Source: a virus (taxonomy: Duplodnaviria > Caudoviricetes). From it: a stretch of DNA of 37,295 nt. Of the stretch, positions 2,636 to 37,295 are shown piece after piece. The stretch covers positions 1 to 37,295 of the IMG/VR virus record IMGVR_UViG_3300036798_000217, one strand, 5' to 3'. Position 1 is the first letter of the stretch. Each line of letters starts with the position of its first letter. A program made the position numbers and the translations under genes. The notes under the pieces were generated by a model, which was not told where the DNA came from, made no database searches, and worked only from the letters and a program-made list of their open reading frames with translations.

Positions 2636-3016
2636 CTACCGCATGTACTCGACAACATCAGGTTTAAAGCCACTTCCTAAATAAATTCTTACCGGAATAG
2701 CTTCTTTTTTATCCCTTGCTGCCTTACACAATTCTTCAGCTGTCTCCCAATTAAAAAACTTATCTACAGCTCTTTGAAATCTCCAAATTGCCATTGTATA
2801 TTGTTCAAAGATGTCATAACGATCATCTTGTTTAGTTGTGCGTGGTAATTCATCCGTACCCTTTGCATTTCTTGGAACTTGGACACGTACATCAGCATAT
2901 GTAACGCGTCCAGTTCCTTTCTTCACATTTGCTTTCATTACATCAAACTCACAAATGGCTGGCTCTACATCAAAAATATTTAATTGCTTAGGCATGTGCC
3001 ATTCCACTCTTTTCAA
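2636..3016 (-). CDS. Conserved Bacillus phage hypothetical protein (likely start MPKQLNIF)
   Basis: ORF overlaps the stop of the AbrB-like gene. Confidence 0.75.
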   Translation of the reverse strand: MKRVEWHMPKQLNIFDVEPAICEFDVMKANVKKGTGRVTYADVRVQVPRNAKGTDELPRTTKQDDRYDIFEQYTMAIWRFQRAVDKFFNWETAEELCKAARDKKEAIPVRIYLGSGFKPDVVEYMR

Positions 3017-3266
3017 GAAGGTCCAGTAATTCAGTTGCGCCTTGCTTACTCAAAAACATTTGTCCGTCCAGCAATTCCATGTTTGATTCAGAAACTTCGC
3101 CAGTTACAAAGCATGACTTCTCATGTTTTCTTAAAACGATGTTTTCCCCATCAACATGAAAGTCTAATGCTGTTCCTTCAGCAATTCCCAAAGTTCTGCG
3201 TAACTCTACTGGAATTACTACACGCCCTAGCTCATCCACTTTTCTTGCAATACCTGTGTTTTTCAT
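2988..3266 (-). CDS. AbrB-family transition-state regulator-like protein
   Basis: MKNTGIARKVDELGRVVIPVELRRTLGI closely matches the AbrB N-terminal domain. Confidence 0.92.
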   Translation of the reverse strand: MKNTGIARKVDELGRVVIPVELRRTLGIAEGTALDFHVDGENIVLRKHEKSCFVTGEVSESNMELLDGQMFLSKQGATELLDLLEKSGMAHA

Positions 3267-7080: not shown

Positions 7081-7224
7081 TTAATGTCCACCCGGTTCAA
7101 CCATCATATATTGTACTTGATTTTCAACTGGTTGTTCTTTAATTTCCTTAGTTGTTGCTCCAACATTTAATGATAGAGTGAAAGCACTCATAATACATAA
7201 AATTGCCATACTTATTTTTTTCAT
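7081..7224 (-). CDS. aimP: AimP arbitrium pro-peptide, 47 aa (MKKISMAILCIMSAFTLSLNVGATTKEIKEQPVENQVQYMMVEPGGH)
   Basis: Signal peptide plus C-terminal MMVEPGGH, similar to B. cereus-group (D/E)PGG arbitrium peptides; directly after aimR. Confidence 0.88.
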   Translation of the reverse strand: MKKISMAILCIMSAFTLSLNVGATTKEIKEQPVENQVQYMMVEPGGH

Positions 7225-7226
7225 CC

Positions 7227-21812: not shown

Positions 21813-22920
21813 CGTAATGTTCAGCAGGATTCGCAACGCCCTGCCAGTTCTCTTATGAACTTCTGTATATCACTATACAGACCAGACTATATCATCATCT
21901 AGGCAATAAAAAAGAGAGCCTAGATGCTCCCTATTTCCACTATCATTAACTTATAGTGTACGTCTCTCGACTAGTCGTTACACCTTCATTTAACAAATCG
22001 AATTTATACCCTTCTAAATGACGATATTTATTTTTTTCTCTGTTAAAATCTTTTTCAACGGATATTTTTTTTCCCATTAATTTATTCAATAAATAATAAC
22101 TCATCCTAAAATGTTCAGTAACCTCTTCTTTAGAAGCAAATATAGTGACACTCCCACTACTATCAGTAGCTCTTATTTTTATAGAACTAGGATTATTTTC
22201 TCCGGATATAGCTGCTCCATTACCGAAATTAGGATTATTTTCTCCTGCATAATCTCTATTCAAGCAATGAATTTTAAGTTTCAACTTATGCTCTTCTGAC
22301 TTTTTCTTACCTTCAAGTGCTTTACTGATTTTTTGCTTCCTCACTTCTGTGGCTTTTCTTCCATATAACGGACTTAAATTACCCTTTCTTCCGTACATTG
22401 GATTAGAATCACCAGAGGCTGCACCATATCCACCGTCATCTAAATTCACAAGTTTGTAATTAAATAAGTGCTTATATTCGTAGATATACCACACTTCAGC
22501 CTCGTACGCTTCTTTCTCAGTAAGATTATCAGCTATAACCCTAGAAATAGCACCATGTACCTTGATTGTATTTTTAAACCATTCACTTCTCCCTCTGTGT
22601 ATATCGTTCACTCGATTTCCACAGCCTTTTCCTACGTAAAATGGCTCTCCTGTATCTAGTCTTATAAATTCGTAAACGTAGAACCGTTTGTCCACCTACT
22701 CACCCCATATTTACAATCCTTAATGATACCTATATTGTATCATTTACTTTAGAGGAAGAAATGTTTGAACAATTAGGAATGGTATTTTTAATAAAAAAAT
22801 AAATTCGTCGTCGATTTGTTAAAAGCTTGGCTCGGTATTGTCTCAATGAAAAGTCACTGAGAGTTTCACCGAATTAAAGGAGTTTGCTATGAATGTCACC
22901 ATTCATAGGGACAATTTTTT
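21813..22920 (-). mobile_element. Group I self-splicing intron (IA-like), 1108 nt, in the tape measure gene
   Basis: Exon ends in U with P1 GGAUAA/UUGUCC; P2 with GUGA loop; P AAUUCGGUGAAA; Q AAUACCGAGC; R GUAACGACUA; S AUGAUAUAGUC; P9 GUGA loop; terminal G. Confidence 0.93.
21946..22695 (-). CDS. Intron-encoded GIY-YIG homing endonuclease with NUMOD3-like repeats
   Basis: FYVY...FYVGKG..R...E...N nuclease motif; NPMYGRK, SPLYGRK, KKSEEHK repeats. Confidence 0.88.
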   Translation of the reverse strand: MDKRFYVYEFIRLDTGEPFYVGKGCGNRVNDIHRGRSEWFKNTIKVHGAISRVIADNLTEKEAYEAEVWYIYEYKHLFNYKLVNLDDGGYGAASGDSNPMYGRKGNLSPLYGRKATEVRKQKISKALEGKKKSEEHKLKLKIHCLNRDYAGENNPNFGNGAAISGENNPSSIKIRATDSSGSVTIFASKEEVTEHFRMSYYLLNKLMGKKISVEKDFNREKNKYRHLEGYKFDLLNEGVTTSRETYTIS

Positions 22921-32995: not shown

Positions 32996-33014
32996 CCTTC
33001 ATCCTCCTCCAAAA

Positions 33015-33340
33015 TAAAAGGCACCCGAATGGATGCCTTGTTCTCAATTATTATTTTGTACTTTGATTACGGTAAATGAAGTTTTATTCTTCTTTCAGCT
33101 AACAACCACGACAGACGCTCTCGGCTGACTTATCAGGTCACCCTCATTCTGTCTACCTAGGATGTTGTTAGCTCAAAGAAGAGCAAAAGCTCTCCCTCGT
33201 ATACACAACATGAACTTCAATTGGATGTGAAATCAAGAAACAACTGTTCATCCAATCTACAACCATCGCCACCGGTAATGACGATCCATTTTCGATTATC
33301 TGGAATCTTGTGAGCAATGTTTTCCGCCACTACTCACAAT
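33015..33340 (-). ncRNA. Structured leader/ncRNA of the late operon
   Basis: At least five consecutive hairpins, no convincing ORF, ends in a terminator-like hairpin at 33016-33039. Confidence 0.45.
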
Positions 33341-33343
33341 ACA

Positions 33344-33410
33344 AATATAACACGCTATATCCAAAACAACCGGCACATTTCCTGCCAAAAAGCGGTCATG
33401 ACTCTGCCAC
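33344..33410 (-). promoter_or_regulatory. Putative late promoter with activator (ArpU) repeats
   Basis: TGnTATATT at 33352-33344; CTGCCA direct repeats 22 bp apart (33382, 33404). Confidence 0.5.
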
Positions 33411-33449
33411 TTATTTTTATTCTTCACTCTTATGTACTTTATCTTAATG

Positions 33450-33563
33450 ACTTACCCATATCTTATATTGTGTGTAACTGCCCCCTTCGCTGAATCCCTT
33501 GCTATCATTGATTTCATTTAACTTTCTCTTTTGAGTTACACAGTACGAAATTTATGAGTAACT
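33450..33563. repeat. Paired recombinase-type inverted-repeat sites
   Basis: acttaccca-N12-tgtgtaact (33450-33479) and agttacaca-N12-tgagtaact (33534-33563). Confidence 0.6.
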
Positions 33564-33592
33564 GTATAAATTTAAAAAGAAAAAAGCAATGA

Positions 33593-34135
33593 TTAGATTT
33601 TAAACCTAGTCATTGCTTTATCCATCGCATCTTGGTTTACACCTATATAACGTAACGTGACCTTCTCTGACGAGTGATTGAATATCTCCATGAGTAATGC
33701 TATGTTTTTCGTTTGCATGTACATATGGTACCCGTACGTCTTTCTTAGCGTATGTGTTCCGATTTCATCTAAACCAAACTCTGCTGCGGCTATACTTAAT
33801 ATCTTATATGCCATGCTACGACCAATAGGACGATTCTTTCCTTGTCTACTTTGCAACAAATACTCATGATCTTCTCTTTCTTCTATAAACCATTTAAGTT
33901 CTCTTTTTAATGCTGCAGTAATTTGTATTCGTTTCTGTTTCCCTGTTTTCTTTTCCCTCATAGATATATGACTGCTTTTGACATCCCCTACCTTCAATTT
34001 CAAAATATCTGATATTCTAAGACCTGTATTAATACCCATAATGAAGAGAATGTAATTACGTAAGCTCTTTTCCTTAAAATACTCTTTTAGCTGCTGTATT
34101 TCTTCTGGATCACGTATTGGCTGAACAAAATTCAT
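33593..34135 (-). CDS. Minimal tyrosine recombinase (catalytic domain only, 180 aa)
   Basis: NTGLRISD, EKKTGK, HTLRKT, FNHS...TLRYIG. Confidence 0.92.
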   Translation of the reverse strand: MNFVQPIRDPEEIQQLKEYFKEKSLRNYILFIMGINTGLRISDILKLKVGDVKSSHISMREKKTGKQKRIQITAALKRELKWFIEEREDHEYLLQSRQGKNRPIGRSMAYKILSIAAAEFGLDEIGTHTLRKTYGYHMYMQTKNIALLMEIFNHSSEKVTLRYIGVNQDAMDKAMTRFKI

Positions 34136-34617
34136 TATTCATTACCTCCAGTCTTTTCTGTCTCGTAAACTTCTAATCCAAGTGCAAAAGCAAGTTTATA
34201 AAACGCTTTAGACTTCCAACGTCGATAAGTACGCTCTGACATTCCTATTTCGTTATAAACCATGTAATCACATACATCCTCTTCTTCTAAATAACGTTTA
34301 TAAATAATATCTCTTTGGTTACTTCCTGCACGTCCGTTTCCTAGTCGATTTAGAAACTGATCAATACGTAATGACATTCCTTCAAGCCATTCTTCTCGTT
34401 TACTTTGTTGAATATTTGCTATGGCAACATCTTCTAATGGCTTTCCAACTGCATGTGTAGGACCGTGCTCACGCATTTCATAAGAAGGAGTGACTTTCAT
34501 TTCTTTACGCATCATCCCAAATTGCCTATGTATACGTACACTTTCCAAAACACCTTCTAATTCCTCTTGTGTTGCTGCTCTATCGATTTTTGGTAAGAAA
34601 GATAATTGTTTAGTCAT
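34135..34617 (-). CDS. ArpU-family late transcriptional activator
   Basis: KVTPSYE...IIYKRYL...SERTYRRWKSKAFYKLA. Confidence 0.85.
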   Translation of the reverse strand: MTKQLSFLPKIDRAATQEELEGVLESVRIHRQFGMMRKEMKVTPSYEMREHGPTHAVGKPLEDVAIANIQQSKREEWLEGMSLRIDQFLNRLGNGRAGSNQRDIIYKRYLEEEDVCDYMVYNEIGMSERTYRRWKSKAFYKLAFALGLEVYETEKTGGNE

Positions 34618-34644
34618 GTAAGACCACTCCTTTTTATTTTTAAA

Positions 34645-34815
34645 TTACTTTTGTCTTAATGCTCCACGTCTACGCTCATAACGCGGTCCACGAATCCCCA
34701 TTAAGTCTTCAATATCACGAGTACTTAATTTCTCTTTTCGCTTTTTCTTGTTTTTCTTTTTCACTTGATTAGATTGCTTTTTCCATTCACGTAATTGATC
34801 TCTTAGCACCTTCAT
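34645..34815 (-). CDS. Basic small protein, 56 aa (MKVLRDQLREWKK...)
   Basis: Manually translated; LSTRDIEDLMG..GPRYERRRGALRQ. Confidence 0.7.
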   Translation of the reverse strand: MKVLRDQLREWKKQSNQVKKKNKKKRKEKLSTRDIEDLMGIRGPRYERRRGALRQK

Positions 34816-34930
34816 TTCCCCATCTCCCTTTTCAAAATAAAAAGGACACCTATTCCTAAAACAGCTGTAATTACTGCTTTAATGAATTGGTGTCCTCTAG
34901 TTTTCTAGCCGGACTATATTCAGTTTCTTT

Positions 34931-35053
34931 TCACTTTAAAATGCCAGCTTGTACAAAAATGTTTCTCCAAGCATTTTTAACTCTATATTTTTCAAAAGAT
35001 TTCGCACGTCGAGCAATAGCTTTTCTGGTTTTCTTTTTCTTTAATTTAGACAT
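34931..35053 (-). CDS. DUF3983-like small protein, 40 aa
   Basis: Manually translated KKKKTRKAIARRAK...AWRNIFVQAGILK. Confidence 0.7.
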   Translation of the reverse strand: MSKLKKKKTRKAIARRAKSFEKYRVKNAWRNIFVQAGILK

Positions 35054-35071
35054 TTCTCTTAACCTCGCTTT

Positions 35072-35245
35072 CTATTCCATTTGTCCTTTGCACTCTTCAA
35101 GAAAATCAATAACTTCCTGAATATGCTCCTTTGTTGTCATACTCTCCATTACGTATCCTTCATTGTTATAAACATTAATCTTATTCCCTTTAAACTCCAT
35201 TCCACACATTCCGTCTGCACCTAATAGCTTTACATTACCTTCCAT
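35072..35245 (-). CDS. Small hypothetical protein, 57 aa (MEGNVKLLGADG...)
   Basis: Manually translated; GAGG RBS; flanked by 24-bp direct repeats. Confidence 0.7.
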   Translation of the reverse strand: MEGNVKLLGADGMCGMEFKGNKINVYNNEGYVMESMTTKEHIQEVIDFLEECKGQME

Positions 35246-35274
35246 TCTCTTAACCTCACTTTCTATTCAAAGGA

Positions 35275-35643
35275 TTATTTTGTTACAAAAAGTACTTCTT
35301 TTAACTTCCGTAATTCGATAAGTGACATCTTATCCACCGTATCCTTTAATTCTTTTCTTAATTGAGTCTTTTCTTTACCACGTTCAACCATTCCCCAATA
35401 CTCATTTTCTGTAATATACGCTTTGTAATTTTCTCCCCATCCCGTTCTATACATAAAATCTTTTTGGCTAAATCTTCTAGGTCTCCAATCAGAGTCTTCT
35501 GGCATAGCATAAAAGCTTGTGCCATTCGCTTTAACTACGATCCACTTCTTCAAGTTAGGTTCTGACTTTGAATACCAGCCACCTAAATGTGTAACGAATA
35601 TTTCTTGTCCTTCTACTATTTTGATTTTGGCCATTCCTCTCAT
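35275..35643 (-). CDS. Hypothetical protein
   Basis: 122-aa ORF with AGGAGG RBS; stop inside the 35264-35285 site. Confidence 0.75.
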   Translation of the reverse strand: MRGMAKIKIVEGQEIFVTHLGGWYSKSEPNLKKWIVVKANGTSFYAMPEDSDWRPRRFSQKDFMYRTGWGENYKAYITENEYWGMVERGKEKTQLRKELKDTVDKMSLIELRKLKEVLFVTK

Positions 35644-35649
35644 TCCTCC

Positions 35650-35747
35650 TGAATAAAACTCAATATTCCGTCAATACTGTAGATACAGTTTCTGATTTTC
35701 CTTCATACCCGAAGGCTTAGCAGTTAGCTTTTGCTAGCTGCTCTTTT
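35650..35747 (+). ncRNA. Antisense sRNA unit 1 (SigG/SigE-like promoter plus shared terminator)
   Basis: TGAATA-N17-AATACTG; agcagttagc-tttt-gctagctgct-ctttt. Confidence 0.55.
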
Positions 35748-35979
35748 ATCGTTTTGGATGGCCACACGCTTCTGCATAATCCCAATATCCTTTACATTCA
35801 GTTGAATTAGGTGTCATTTTGAAGTCTGCTAAGCTTTCTGATACACATTCCTTCGATTTATTACGATTAGGAAAATACATATTCCAATAACACTCAGTGC
35901 AACAACAGGTTAATTCTTGATCACCCTGCACTTGAGCCACTTTTGTAAATAACGCTTCAAATTCATCCATCATATCCAT
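35746..35979 (-). CDS. Cys-rich small protein
   Basis: CCCTECYWN..C..C..C; AAGGAGG RBS. Confidence 0.7.
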   Translation of the reverse strand: MDMMDEFEALFTKVAQVQGDQELTCCCTECYWNMYFPNRNKSKECVSESLADFKMTPNSTECKGYWDYAEACGHPKR

Positions 35980-35986
35980 TCCTCCT

Positions 35987-36092
35987 TGAATAAATTCCTA
36001 AATCTTGTCCATACTATAAATACACTTAATGATTGAACTTCCTTCTTAACTTTTCGTTTGAGAGCAGTTAGCTTTTGCTAGCTGCTCTTTTT
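35987..36092 (+). ncRNA. Antisense sRNA unit 2
   Basis: TGAATA-N17-CATACTA (SigG consensus); same terminator hairpin. Confidence 0.6.
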
Positions 36093-36100
36093 ATGTTTTG

Positions 36101-36217
36101 TGAATAAAATTCTAAACATTGCCTAACACTGTAGATAAGGCTTTAAAAAGTCGATTTCTCCCACTCTAGCTCTCTTGGTCGAGAGTCGAGCAGTTAGCTT
36201 TTGCTAGCTGCTTTTTT
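36101..36217 (+). ncRNA. Antisense sRNA unit 3
   Basis: TGAATA-N18-AACACTG; same terminator hairpin. Confidence 0.55.
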
Positions 36218-36551
36218 ATTTTAAATCCGGTTCATATTTATGTTTCTTCTGTATAAAGATCTCATGAACCAATTTCACGCAAAAATCTACGACATCCTCA
36301 TCACTTGTAATATTCGCACCAATGTTAGCATTCTGAAATTCTTTTATATCCTGTATCATTTTTGTATTAGGTATCTGCTTTTCTAACATTTTTCGAATCA
36401 CTTTAGATTGGCTCTCTCCATCGTATTCACATAGAAACTCAATCTCACTCCATAACTCAGTCGGTAAAGTTAACGATACTTTTCTTGTCTCACCAATTGC
36501 TTTACGCCCTGCTCCTTCTCTTTTCCCACCACGATTGTTTTGTTCAGTCAT
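36216..36551 (-). CDS. Ribbon-helix-helix-like DNA-binding protein
   Basis: RGGKREGAGRK plus RKVSLTLP..LW..I...SQSKVIRKML. Confidence 0.75.
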   Translation of the reverse strand: MTEQNNRGGKREGAGRKAIGETRKVSLTLPTELWSEIEFLCEYDGESQSKVIRKMLEKQIPNTKMIQDIKEFQNANIGANITSDEDVVDFCVKLVHEIFIQKKHKYEPDLK

Positions 36552-36565
36552 TATATATCTCTCCT

Positions 36566-36616
36566 TTGAATAAAGTTACTTTATTCAATTGTATTCTTCG
36601 TGGTAAACATTATCAA
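36566..36616 (-). promoter_or_regulatory. SigA promoter with operator palindrome at +1
   Basis: TTGATA-N17-TACAAT (36616-36588); TTGAATAAAG-N3-CTTTATTCAA (36566-36588). Confidence 0.7.
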
Positions 36617-36726
36617 TTGATTTTAGTAACTTCATTCAAAAAAAGATTTCTACAAAATGAAATTTTTATTAAAAACCGAACATTTCCCTTAAACTACAGC
36701 TGCAAACTTAAATCAAATTCCGAACA

Positions 36727-36843
36727 TTAATACTCATAACTAATATTATTTGCTTCCATCCAGTTTTCTCGTTCTGCTTGTACGATCATTTCTTGCTCCG
36801 CTTCAATTTCTAAACGCTCTTGCTCATTCCAAGTGTCTTTCAT
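36727..36843 (-). CDS. Acidic small protein, 38 aa (MKDTWNEQERLEIEAEQEMIVQAERENWMEANNISYEY)
   Basis: Manually translated; AAGGAG RBS. Confidence 0.65.
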   Translation of the reverse strand: MKDTWNEQERLEIEAEQEMIVQAERENWMEANNISYEY

Positions 36844-36879
36844 TTCATATTCTCCTTTTCTAACAAAATAGCGTTTTTA

Positions 36880-37101
36880 TTAAGCTTTATTTAGCTTATT
36901 TAAATTAATTGCTGATTCCATCCAAAAACTGCAGATGAATTCTACAGATACATTTTCGACTTGTTCTTCTGTATATTCATAAAAATCCACCGCTACATTT
37001 TTAGCGAATCTCTCTGCATATTCATCTTCTTTTCTAGAAACAGAAACTATAAAGCTCATGTGCTCGTTATATACATGGTATTGATAAATCGTGTTAGGCA
37101 T
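36880..37101 (-). CDS. Hypothetical protein (start MPNTIYQ)
   Basis: AAGGGAG RBS; stop at the end of the 36861-36882 site. Confidence 0.7.
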   Translation of the reverse strand: MPNTIYQYHVYNEHMSFIVSVSRKEDEYAERFAKNVAVDFYEYTEEQVENVSVEFICSFWMESAINLNKLNKA

Positions 37102-37168
37102 TTTATTCTCCCTTTCTCTCAAATAACGATTTTGTTCACTTTTTCGATACATTTATGAAACATTCATG

Positions 37169-37295
37169 TGTTATCTTCAATAAGTCCTTTTAAAAACAGA
37201 AAGATTTATTATGTAAAAGACCCTAGTCCCCTCTAGGGCTTTTTACATTCAAATAAAAATCCCGTTTAAAACTGCACATATATTAAAAGCATACA
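37169..37295. repeat. Terminal direct repeat, copy 2
   Basis: Identical to 1-127. Confidence 0.95.

Follow-up and report, generated by a model that had tools for sequence, protein, structure and literature searches.

Three short plus-strand units in the early region of a temperate Bacillus cereus-group phage belong to a family of cassettes that we read, at a probability of roughly 0.55, as SigG-driven forespore RNAs of 60–110 nt that would block translation in trans by pairing with the start codon and the Shine-Dalgarno (SD) sequence. That the units are transcribed as sporulation RNAs at all is a safer claim, which we consider very probable. Each cassette has a constant SigG-type promoter and a constant terminator hairpin around a variable body without an ORF. 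The family is real and conserved, and apparently undescribed: a full-text literature search, covering mostly journals outside subscription, returned no description of it.

The stretch of DNA analysed here (37,295 nt, hereafter the window) has the gene content of a temperate B. cereus-group siphophage according to PHROGs and Pfam searches, with an integrase, two opposed repressor-type genes, AimR, a DnaC-like loader, terminase, tail genes and an amidase_3 lysin. Its early operon lies on the minus strand, and the three units (35650–36218) are found on the plus strand near the far end of that operon (Table 1). A preliminary description had reported three plus-strand units antisense to the early operon, each with a TGAATA-N17/18 promoter and an identical 24-nt hairpin, and all of them are where it placed them. 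The hairpin is present in three copies in the window and in none of 100 shuffles; the promoter pattern matches three times, each time 5′ of a hairpin, against a chance mean of 0.06. A T run follows every one of the three hairpins, which are also the strongest terminator predictions within 33000–37295, and the unit 3 promoter is directly 3′ of the unit 2 terminator. A sigma70-type site was sought in the three units and none was found. Rfam 15 covariance models gave no match at gathering score in the window, and only group II intron matches on three cassette loci from elsewhere (L256, L258 and L261). A phage sigma factor, of which the preliminary description had seen none, is not named among the 42 of 112 listed ORFs that were searched against PHROGs either.

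Table 1. Predicted features of the three units and of the genes around them (window coordinates)
Feature	Position	Strand	Details
Transcriptional activator	34135..34617	-	phrog_248; 1.0-1.6 kb downstream of the units along the early operon
Accessory gene, 122 aa, phage ProQ-C-like	35275..35643	-	Pfam PF24203; SD abutted by unit 1 -35 box
Unit 1 SigG-type promoter	35650..35680	+	TGAATA 35650-55, 17 nt, AATACTGT 35673-80
Predicted sRNA 1, ~65 nt	35684..35748	+	CCUUC/GAAGG hairpin in body, terminator 35719-35742, U tract; inferred start
Accessory ORF, 77 aa, between units 1 and 2	35746..35979	-	no PHROGs family; SD abutted by unit 2 -35 box; stop codon inside unit 1 U tract
Unit 2 SigG-type promoter	35987..36017	+	TGAATA 35987-92, 17 nt, CATACTAT 36010-17
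Predicted sRNA 2, ~73 nt	36021..36093	+	unstructured body, conserved GAACUUCCUUCUU core, terminator 36063-36086
Unit 3 SigG-type promoter	36101..36132	+	TGAATA 36101-06, 18 nt, AACACTGT 36125-32
Predicted sRNA 3, ~83 nt	36136..36218	+	5′ hairpin, free CCCACUCU core, CUCUC/GAGAG hairpin, terminator 36189-36212
ORF, 111 aa	36216..36551	-	phrog_35980; stop codon inside unit 3 U tract

The SigG consensus combines a -35 element GHATA with a CATACTA-like -10 element at a distance of 17–18 nt, while that of SigE has a shorter spacer and CATACA. Across 172 cassette promoters the spacer measures 17 nt in 153 and 18 nt in 19, the -10 box reads (A/C)ATACT(A/G)T and its T at position 6 is present in 100%. 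We built a promoter matrix from 70 distinct box pairs and ran it on the 200 nt upstream of 2455 genes, namely those called in 2.4 of the 5.4 Mb of host genome G011. The ranking is headed by spoVT, with Ku in seventh and sigG in eighth place and a Ger(x)C gene and Fin within the top 36 (37 proteins were checked by domain search); it is partly circular as a test, because a SigG-like score had been used to choose the promoters and the ranking had no SigE genes as a control. The gene in second place has no NCBIfam match and is presumably alpha/beta SASP-like, and several of the top matches are unrelated genes. Judged by the consensus and by this partly circular ranking, the cassette promoters are pointing to forespore SigG rather than to SigE, in keeping with the assignment made from the three window promoters. 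SpoVT, for its part, is given as forespore-specific in the accessible text of PMC5061766.

The hairpin is present in about 520 IMG/VR stretches, of which 131 were fetched. The unit region is matched by 50 phage records, 42 of them named Bacillus, and unit 1 by 303 plasmids, all of them from Bacillus. Among B. cereus-group genomes, the exact hairpin is found in 66 of 71 and a strict pattern for the whole cassette in 42 of the 71; in the rest of the taxonomic family none of 34 genomes has the strict pattern. Outside Bacillus, hairpin look-alikes from a GTDB search are without the promoter, by inspection. Besides prophages and their remnants, plasmids and a single syntenic site on the chromosome have cassettes, so that the original notion of a phage-borne family holds for phages but is too narrow. 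The chromosomal copy (L256:8185-8300, L257, L258) lies upstream of an SMR transporter pair; two of the genomes have SDR/MerR genes beside it and the third lacks them, while the cassette is kept in all. A prophage remnant (L261:7700-8200) carries three tandem cassettes, of which the middle one belongs to the unit 2 family and the outer two to the unit 3 family. The hairpin is not merely an ordinary ORF terminator: a promoter and an ORF-less body precede most copies, the strict promoter pattern being found 5′ of the hairpin in 96 of 151 distinct exact-hairpin units. Of 370 hairpin readings, with both orientations counted, 142 have a promoter scoring at least 11 in front of them, versus 2 of 1850 in shuffles. 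In a minority of cases the hairpin does terminate an ORF; examples are collagen/BclA_C morons, where a conserved 50-nt 3′ region precedes it (L269:7249-8650; L035, L044, L067). Phage phBC6A52, which has a cassette beside BC2571, also encodes two collagen-repeat genes, on the same strand as the cassette.

The hairpin has a polarity. It folds at -15.6 kcal/mol on the plus strand and at -10.7 kcal/mol on the minus strand, and whole units follow suit (z of -4.1 to -4.9 versus -1.6 to -3.0), so the plus-strand preference deduced from a single U-G pair extends to the whole unit. In 53 hairpin variants we counted 60 changed pairs, which are not independent events: 27 can pair only on the plus strand, 7 only on the minus strand, 17 on both and 9 on neither. 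The bodies, too, fold slightly better in sense (mean z -0.40 versus -0.14, p 0.019). The terminator is 100% paired in 29 distinct relatives of unit 3; the compensatory-change signal in the unit 3 family is not above that of shuffles (346/500).

A constant promoter and terminator around a variable, ORF-less body had been postulated from three examples, and the arrangement is now seen in 224 units, which yield 190 bodies of 28–84 nt in 67 families. A sense SD followed by ATG was sought in 116 phage bodies and found in none (0/116). The region from 30 to 8 nt before the hairpin is 72% pyrimidine. When the bodies are read in reverse, an SD, 5–13 nt and an ATG (that is, CAU plus an anti-SD in the RNA) are found in 45% of the 67 families, compared with 18±4% in 300 dinucleotide shuffles (p ≤ 0.003). 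CAU occurs 91 times in the bodies versus 61±6 times in shuffled ones, and AUG is not enriched. The anti-SD character ascribed to the three window bodies is therefore borne out family-wide, with an anti-AUG element added to it. One seed, ANARCYCAU, the complement of AUG RGY UNU, recurs in 14 of the 67 families (shuffles: mean 0.2, maximum 2), and shared descent may explain part of this recurrence. An opposite-strand mini-ORF as the content of the bodies was considered and rejected, as by inspection its frames differ between families.

Predicted structure leaves these elements accessible. The unpaired fraction is 0.77 for the seed, 0.69 for the anti-SD and 0.56 for the rest of the body, and in the commonest family a C-rich loop is predicted on a CUCC/GGAG stem. 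Within families the core is invariant and the flanks vary: the core is GAACUUCCUUCUU in the unit 2 family (15 distinct bodies) and CC(C/U)ACUCU in the unit 3 family (found in 37 IMG/VR stretches), where one of the two alignments was fetched by a pattern containing the core and invariance is unbiased in the other only. Of the CU-rich tracts that had been noted in each body, those of units 2 and 3 are predicted to be free, whereas the CCUUC of unit 1 is predicted to pair with GAAGG.

We propose that host SigG would fire the units in the forespore. The resulting short, stable RNAs of 60–110 nt would, to judge by the body statistics, act in trans, pairing with the start codon and SD region of mRNAs and so lowering translation. 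As the modularity suggests, their bodies would be swapped by recombination, with the conserved promoter and hairpin as the arms. The likely purpose would be to silence the prophage and the pool of accessory genes and to tune forespore translation, so that the element survives in the dormant spore. Action in trans, rather than in cis only, is suggested by the persistence of copies on plasmids and at a chromosomal site with a changing neighbour gene. Action in cis and in trans is not mutually exclusive, and the antisense position of the phage copies within the early operon makes a further effect in cis possible. More tentatively, and with appreciably less confidence, prophages and plasmids of the B. 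cereus group might share the cassettes as a naturally reprogrammable sRNA toolkit, in which anti-start guides are swapped between the arms. Every element would thereby have a set of its own for blocking translation in the developing spore, aimed at host energy metabolism (adk), at phage regulators (abrB-like genes, the arbitrium peptide) or at the lysins of rival prophages.

The location of the phage cassettes bears on a different explanation. Where genes are called on both sides, 73 of 88 cassettes are antisense to both neighbours; the median distance is 16 nt to the next start codon and 5 nt to the stop codon before the cassette. With respect to the transcriptional activator, which we take to be 'ArpU-like', 50 of 51 cassettes are antisense to and upstream of the activator homologue, at a median of 1.0 kb, a statistic that leaves out 65 of 116 cassettes with no homologue in view; 53 of 53 lie upstream of terL. 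The loci behind these counts were fetched by one promoter variant or by lysin, and since a single promoter variant was used the position statistics may be biased. Such a placement would be expected if SigG-driven convergent transcription, or a perfect antisense duplex formed with intergenic early mRNA, cut or stalled the early transcript just before the late-gene activator, leaving the prophage unable to go lytic in the forespore and making the body sequence secondary. Arrest of the lytic cycle during sporulation is indeed known to occur via Spo0A boxes, as far as the accessible part of PMC12991052 goes. However, a shut-off in cis leaves the conserved single-stranded cores, the recurring seed and the anti-AUG bias unexplained, together with the gene-less tandem units (units 2–3; L261) and the retention on plasmids and the chromosome, and the accessory zone before the activator may simply tolerate insertions. 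We consider it unlikely as the whole explanation.

Exchange of bodies between constant arms is most clearly indicated by the PF24203 gene (35275–35643): in four of four homologues, in the window and in three IMG/VR relatives, the same promoter stands beside the gene with four different bodies, one for each phage. All three of these relatives are also directly behind a cassette. A role for the gene as a dedicated sRNA chaperone was rejected: there are only three related loci for some 520 hairpin stretches, so the ProQ-C-like gene is not required. Such exchange is compatible with translational control in trans and also with a second alternative, in which the promoter and the hairpin serve as blocks of homology at which accessory genes are shuffled, as in PeSL cassettes, with any RNA as a by-product. 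The promoter spacer is kept letter for letter (about 160 IMG/VR stretches have an exact copy of the 28-nt promoter core of unit 1), there is free variation in the bodies and in the genes next to them, segments of the window are joined across the arms in contigs of related phages, and the PeSL cassettes themselves offer a precedent (PMC2839356, in the part accessible). Here, however, the promoter is directed away from the genes, with nothing but a non-coding body under its control, while the strand-biased hairpin changes and the body cores indicate selection on the RNA; we regard recombination alone as distinctly improbable. Poorest of all are the prospects of the view that the cassettes are relics, either the leftover promoter and terminator of spore-expressed morons after ORF loss or the starts of opposite-strand genes: although the hairpin ends spore-type morons (collagen/BclA_C in L269), of 12 hairpins without a promoter 7 come after an ORF on the same strand and the bodies read SD-spacer-ATG on the other strand, lost ORFs should leave a sense SD or ATG (0/116), the opposite-strand mini-ORFs are in different frames by inspection, and decay would not keep near-consensus promoters in 67 families.

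If the RNAs act in trans on translation, their targets should be sought at ribosome-binding sites (RBSs). The best host target of each family beats shuffles weakly (mean p 0.40; 12 of 67 families at the floor versus about 6.7 expected) in duplex searches that covered 45% of the chromosome (2.4 of the 5.4 Mb of G011). The gapped duplex ranking was noisy and without a clear winner, and a convincing duplex for the three bodies, sought inside the window, was not found. The window's bodies are outside the commonest family, and the seed ACAACCCAU is absent from the window.

For that commonest family the adk RBS ranks at the top of 2455 with z -7 and offers 19 contiguous pairs, three of them G-U. Outside cassettes, a 15-letter wobble complement of the commonest loop is found at the adk RBS alone in four of five genomes and nowhere in the fifth; by hand estimate the chance of the wobble pattern is about 0.1 per genome, before allowing for 67 families. 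Some variants of the family break the adk pairing. The window encodes a phage AbrB-like gene (2988–3266, minus strand, PF04014 + PF18277). Among 50 IMG/VR records, GAGCAAG, the abrB-like RBS variant that gives the best pairing, occurs in three of five that have both an abrB-like start and the commonest loop, and in 0 of 10 without the loop (Fisher p about 0.02 by hand, uncorrected for kinship and multiple tests). We treat the adk RBS and the phage abrB-like RBSs as leads, that is, as candidate targets of the commonest family.

Lysin starts were examined as well. The start of the MGCF amidase, a lysin family that had been fetched on purpose, is the best anchored match of the commonest body (score 47, next 41, mean 22.5), with 13 pairs plus 7 at the SD. 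GH25 lysin starts vary, and their start pattern was parsed in fewer than half of 80 loci. A phage's own lysin was rejected as a target: among ACAACCCAU-seed records with a detected lysin start, 0 of 11 match MGC/MGY perfectly, versus 2 of 6 others.

For the window's own families, an exact 14-nt match to the complement of the unit 2 core, near 199 kb in four of five genomes, was rejected because it is antisense within a coding gene; the same core fits two phage RBSs elsewhere. A conserved unit 3 match near 3.88 Mb was also set aside, being within a long coding sequence. The window has an arbitrium pair at 7081–8462 on the minus strand, consisting of AimR (PF22871) and then a 47-aa ORF (7081–7224) that ends in ...QYMMVEPGGH and that we infer to be AimP-like. 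This aimP was rejected as a target of unit 3: a 9-nt match at its RBS is within chance (7 of 100 shuffles), and none of the three contigs with that RBS is among the 37 unit 3-family carriers. The complement of the unit 3 seed is not enriched before ATG in carriers (21/36 versus 16/36). The leaders of two phage accessory genes (L415:13030 and L456:2842) begin with TGTCGAA, followed by a complement of the unit 3 core, 13 nt long in L456 and 23 nt before the start codon; TGTCGAA is the 0A box as quoted in the accessible text of PMC12991052.

Contigs of eight sequencing runs, mapped to the window and to L258, the copy on the chromosome, gave no discrete signal at the level of assembled contigs. 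In run X11 the contig depth was 217 over the cassette and about 220 in the flank, and several of the runs look like DNA.

RoxS, FsrA, RsaE and RNAIII are C-rich anti-SD sRNAs of Firmicutes. The cassette RNAs share with them C-rich loops or free tracts, here predicted to pair with G-rich SDs. However, those sRNAs are single chromosomal genes with fixed seeds, whereas the cassette units are borne on mobile elements, have SigG-type promoters and dozens of body variants, and are without an Rfam match. Short phage antisense RNAs within an early or immunity operon are represented by lambda OOP, P22 sar and P1/P7 c4; these are single, have fixed targets and are under vegetative or LexA control, while the cassette RNAs are developmental-type and modular. 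The behaviour of temperate phages in the forespore and in dormancy is largely explained via Spo0A boxes and phage sigma factors. If our reading is correct, prophage silencing and spore physiology would gain a new control point in an RNA layer driven by the host forespore sigma factor. With its constant scaffold and dozens of natural guide variants, the family would also serve as a model for the evolution of sRNA seeds and as a ready chassis for forespore-specific knock-downs in laboratory strains.

The PeSL cassettes of T4-type phages resemble ours in having a repeated promoter and stem-loop between accessory genes and in being likely recombination sites, but according to the accessible text their promoters are sigma70 early promoters that lie upstream of the genes under their control and face them, and the stem-loop is within the promoter or close to it (PMC2839356); cassette promoters face away from genes, are sporulation-type and enclose a non-coding body. 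Another short B. cereus-group sRNA, BtsR1 of Bacillus thuringiensis YBT-1518, is 51 nt long with its own terminator and a CU-rich 5′ part and blocks an RBS by a 13-bp pairing (PMC5758910). In the parts of that paper accessible to us, it differs from the cassette RNAs in sequence, its supplement is without the hairpin motif and its probe is unlike the family; it comes from one lysR-merR locus, is expressed from exponential to late stationary phase, and is no member of a swappable family. XrrA/B are described as AtxA-controlled and Hfq-independent in the accessible text of PMC7843513. The bcr1–bcr18 and Bant-1 repeats are likewise interspersed, intergenic and confined to the B. cereus group, and some are predicted RNAs; the described sizes (about 155 bp for bcr1, 310 bp for bcr5 and 72 bp for Bant-1, of which there are 104 copies) and contexts in the accessible text of PMC3184786, PMC3446304 and PMC2267715 set them apart, and overlap with one of them is possible. 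Compared with known anti-RBS sRNAs, the cassettes are unusual in their forespore-type promoter, their distribution on mobile elements and their swappable bodies.

Several further features of the window and of related phages were seen. The tape-measure gene (21836–22903, minus strand) is apparently split by a homing-endonuclease ORF (21946–22695, phrog_314); the interruption suggests an intron, for which Rfam gave no match at gathering score. Directly after the activator gene lies a second, short tyrosine recombinase of 180 aa (33593–34135, minus strand), the main integrase being at 10061–11224, and a 25-nt inverted repeat (88%, 57 nt apart) is found at 33082–33188, between the early and packaging regions. 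Finally, the thermophile phages A403 and AP45 (L655:1190-1230, L656:1160-1230) have a related hairpin, GCAGTAAGC-TTTT-GCTTGCTGC, which lies antisense in the early operon after an antirepressor. In AP45 a TTGACA-18-TACAAT promoter is present about 16 nt 5′ of this hairpin, which is a possible vegetative counterpart of the cassette.
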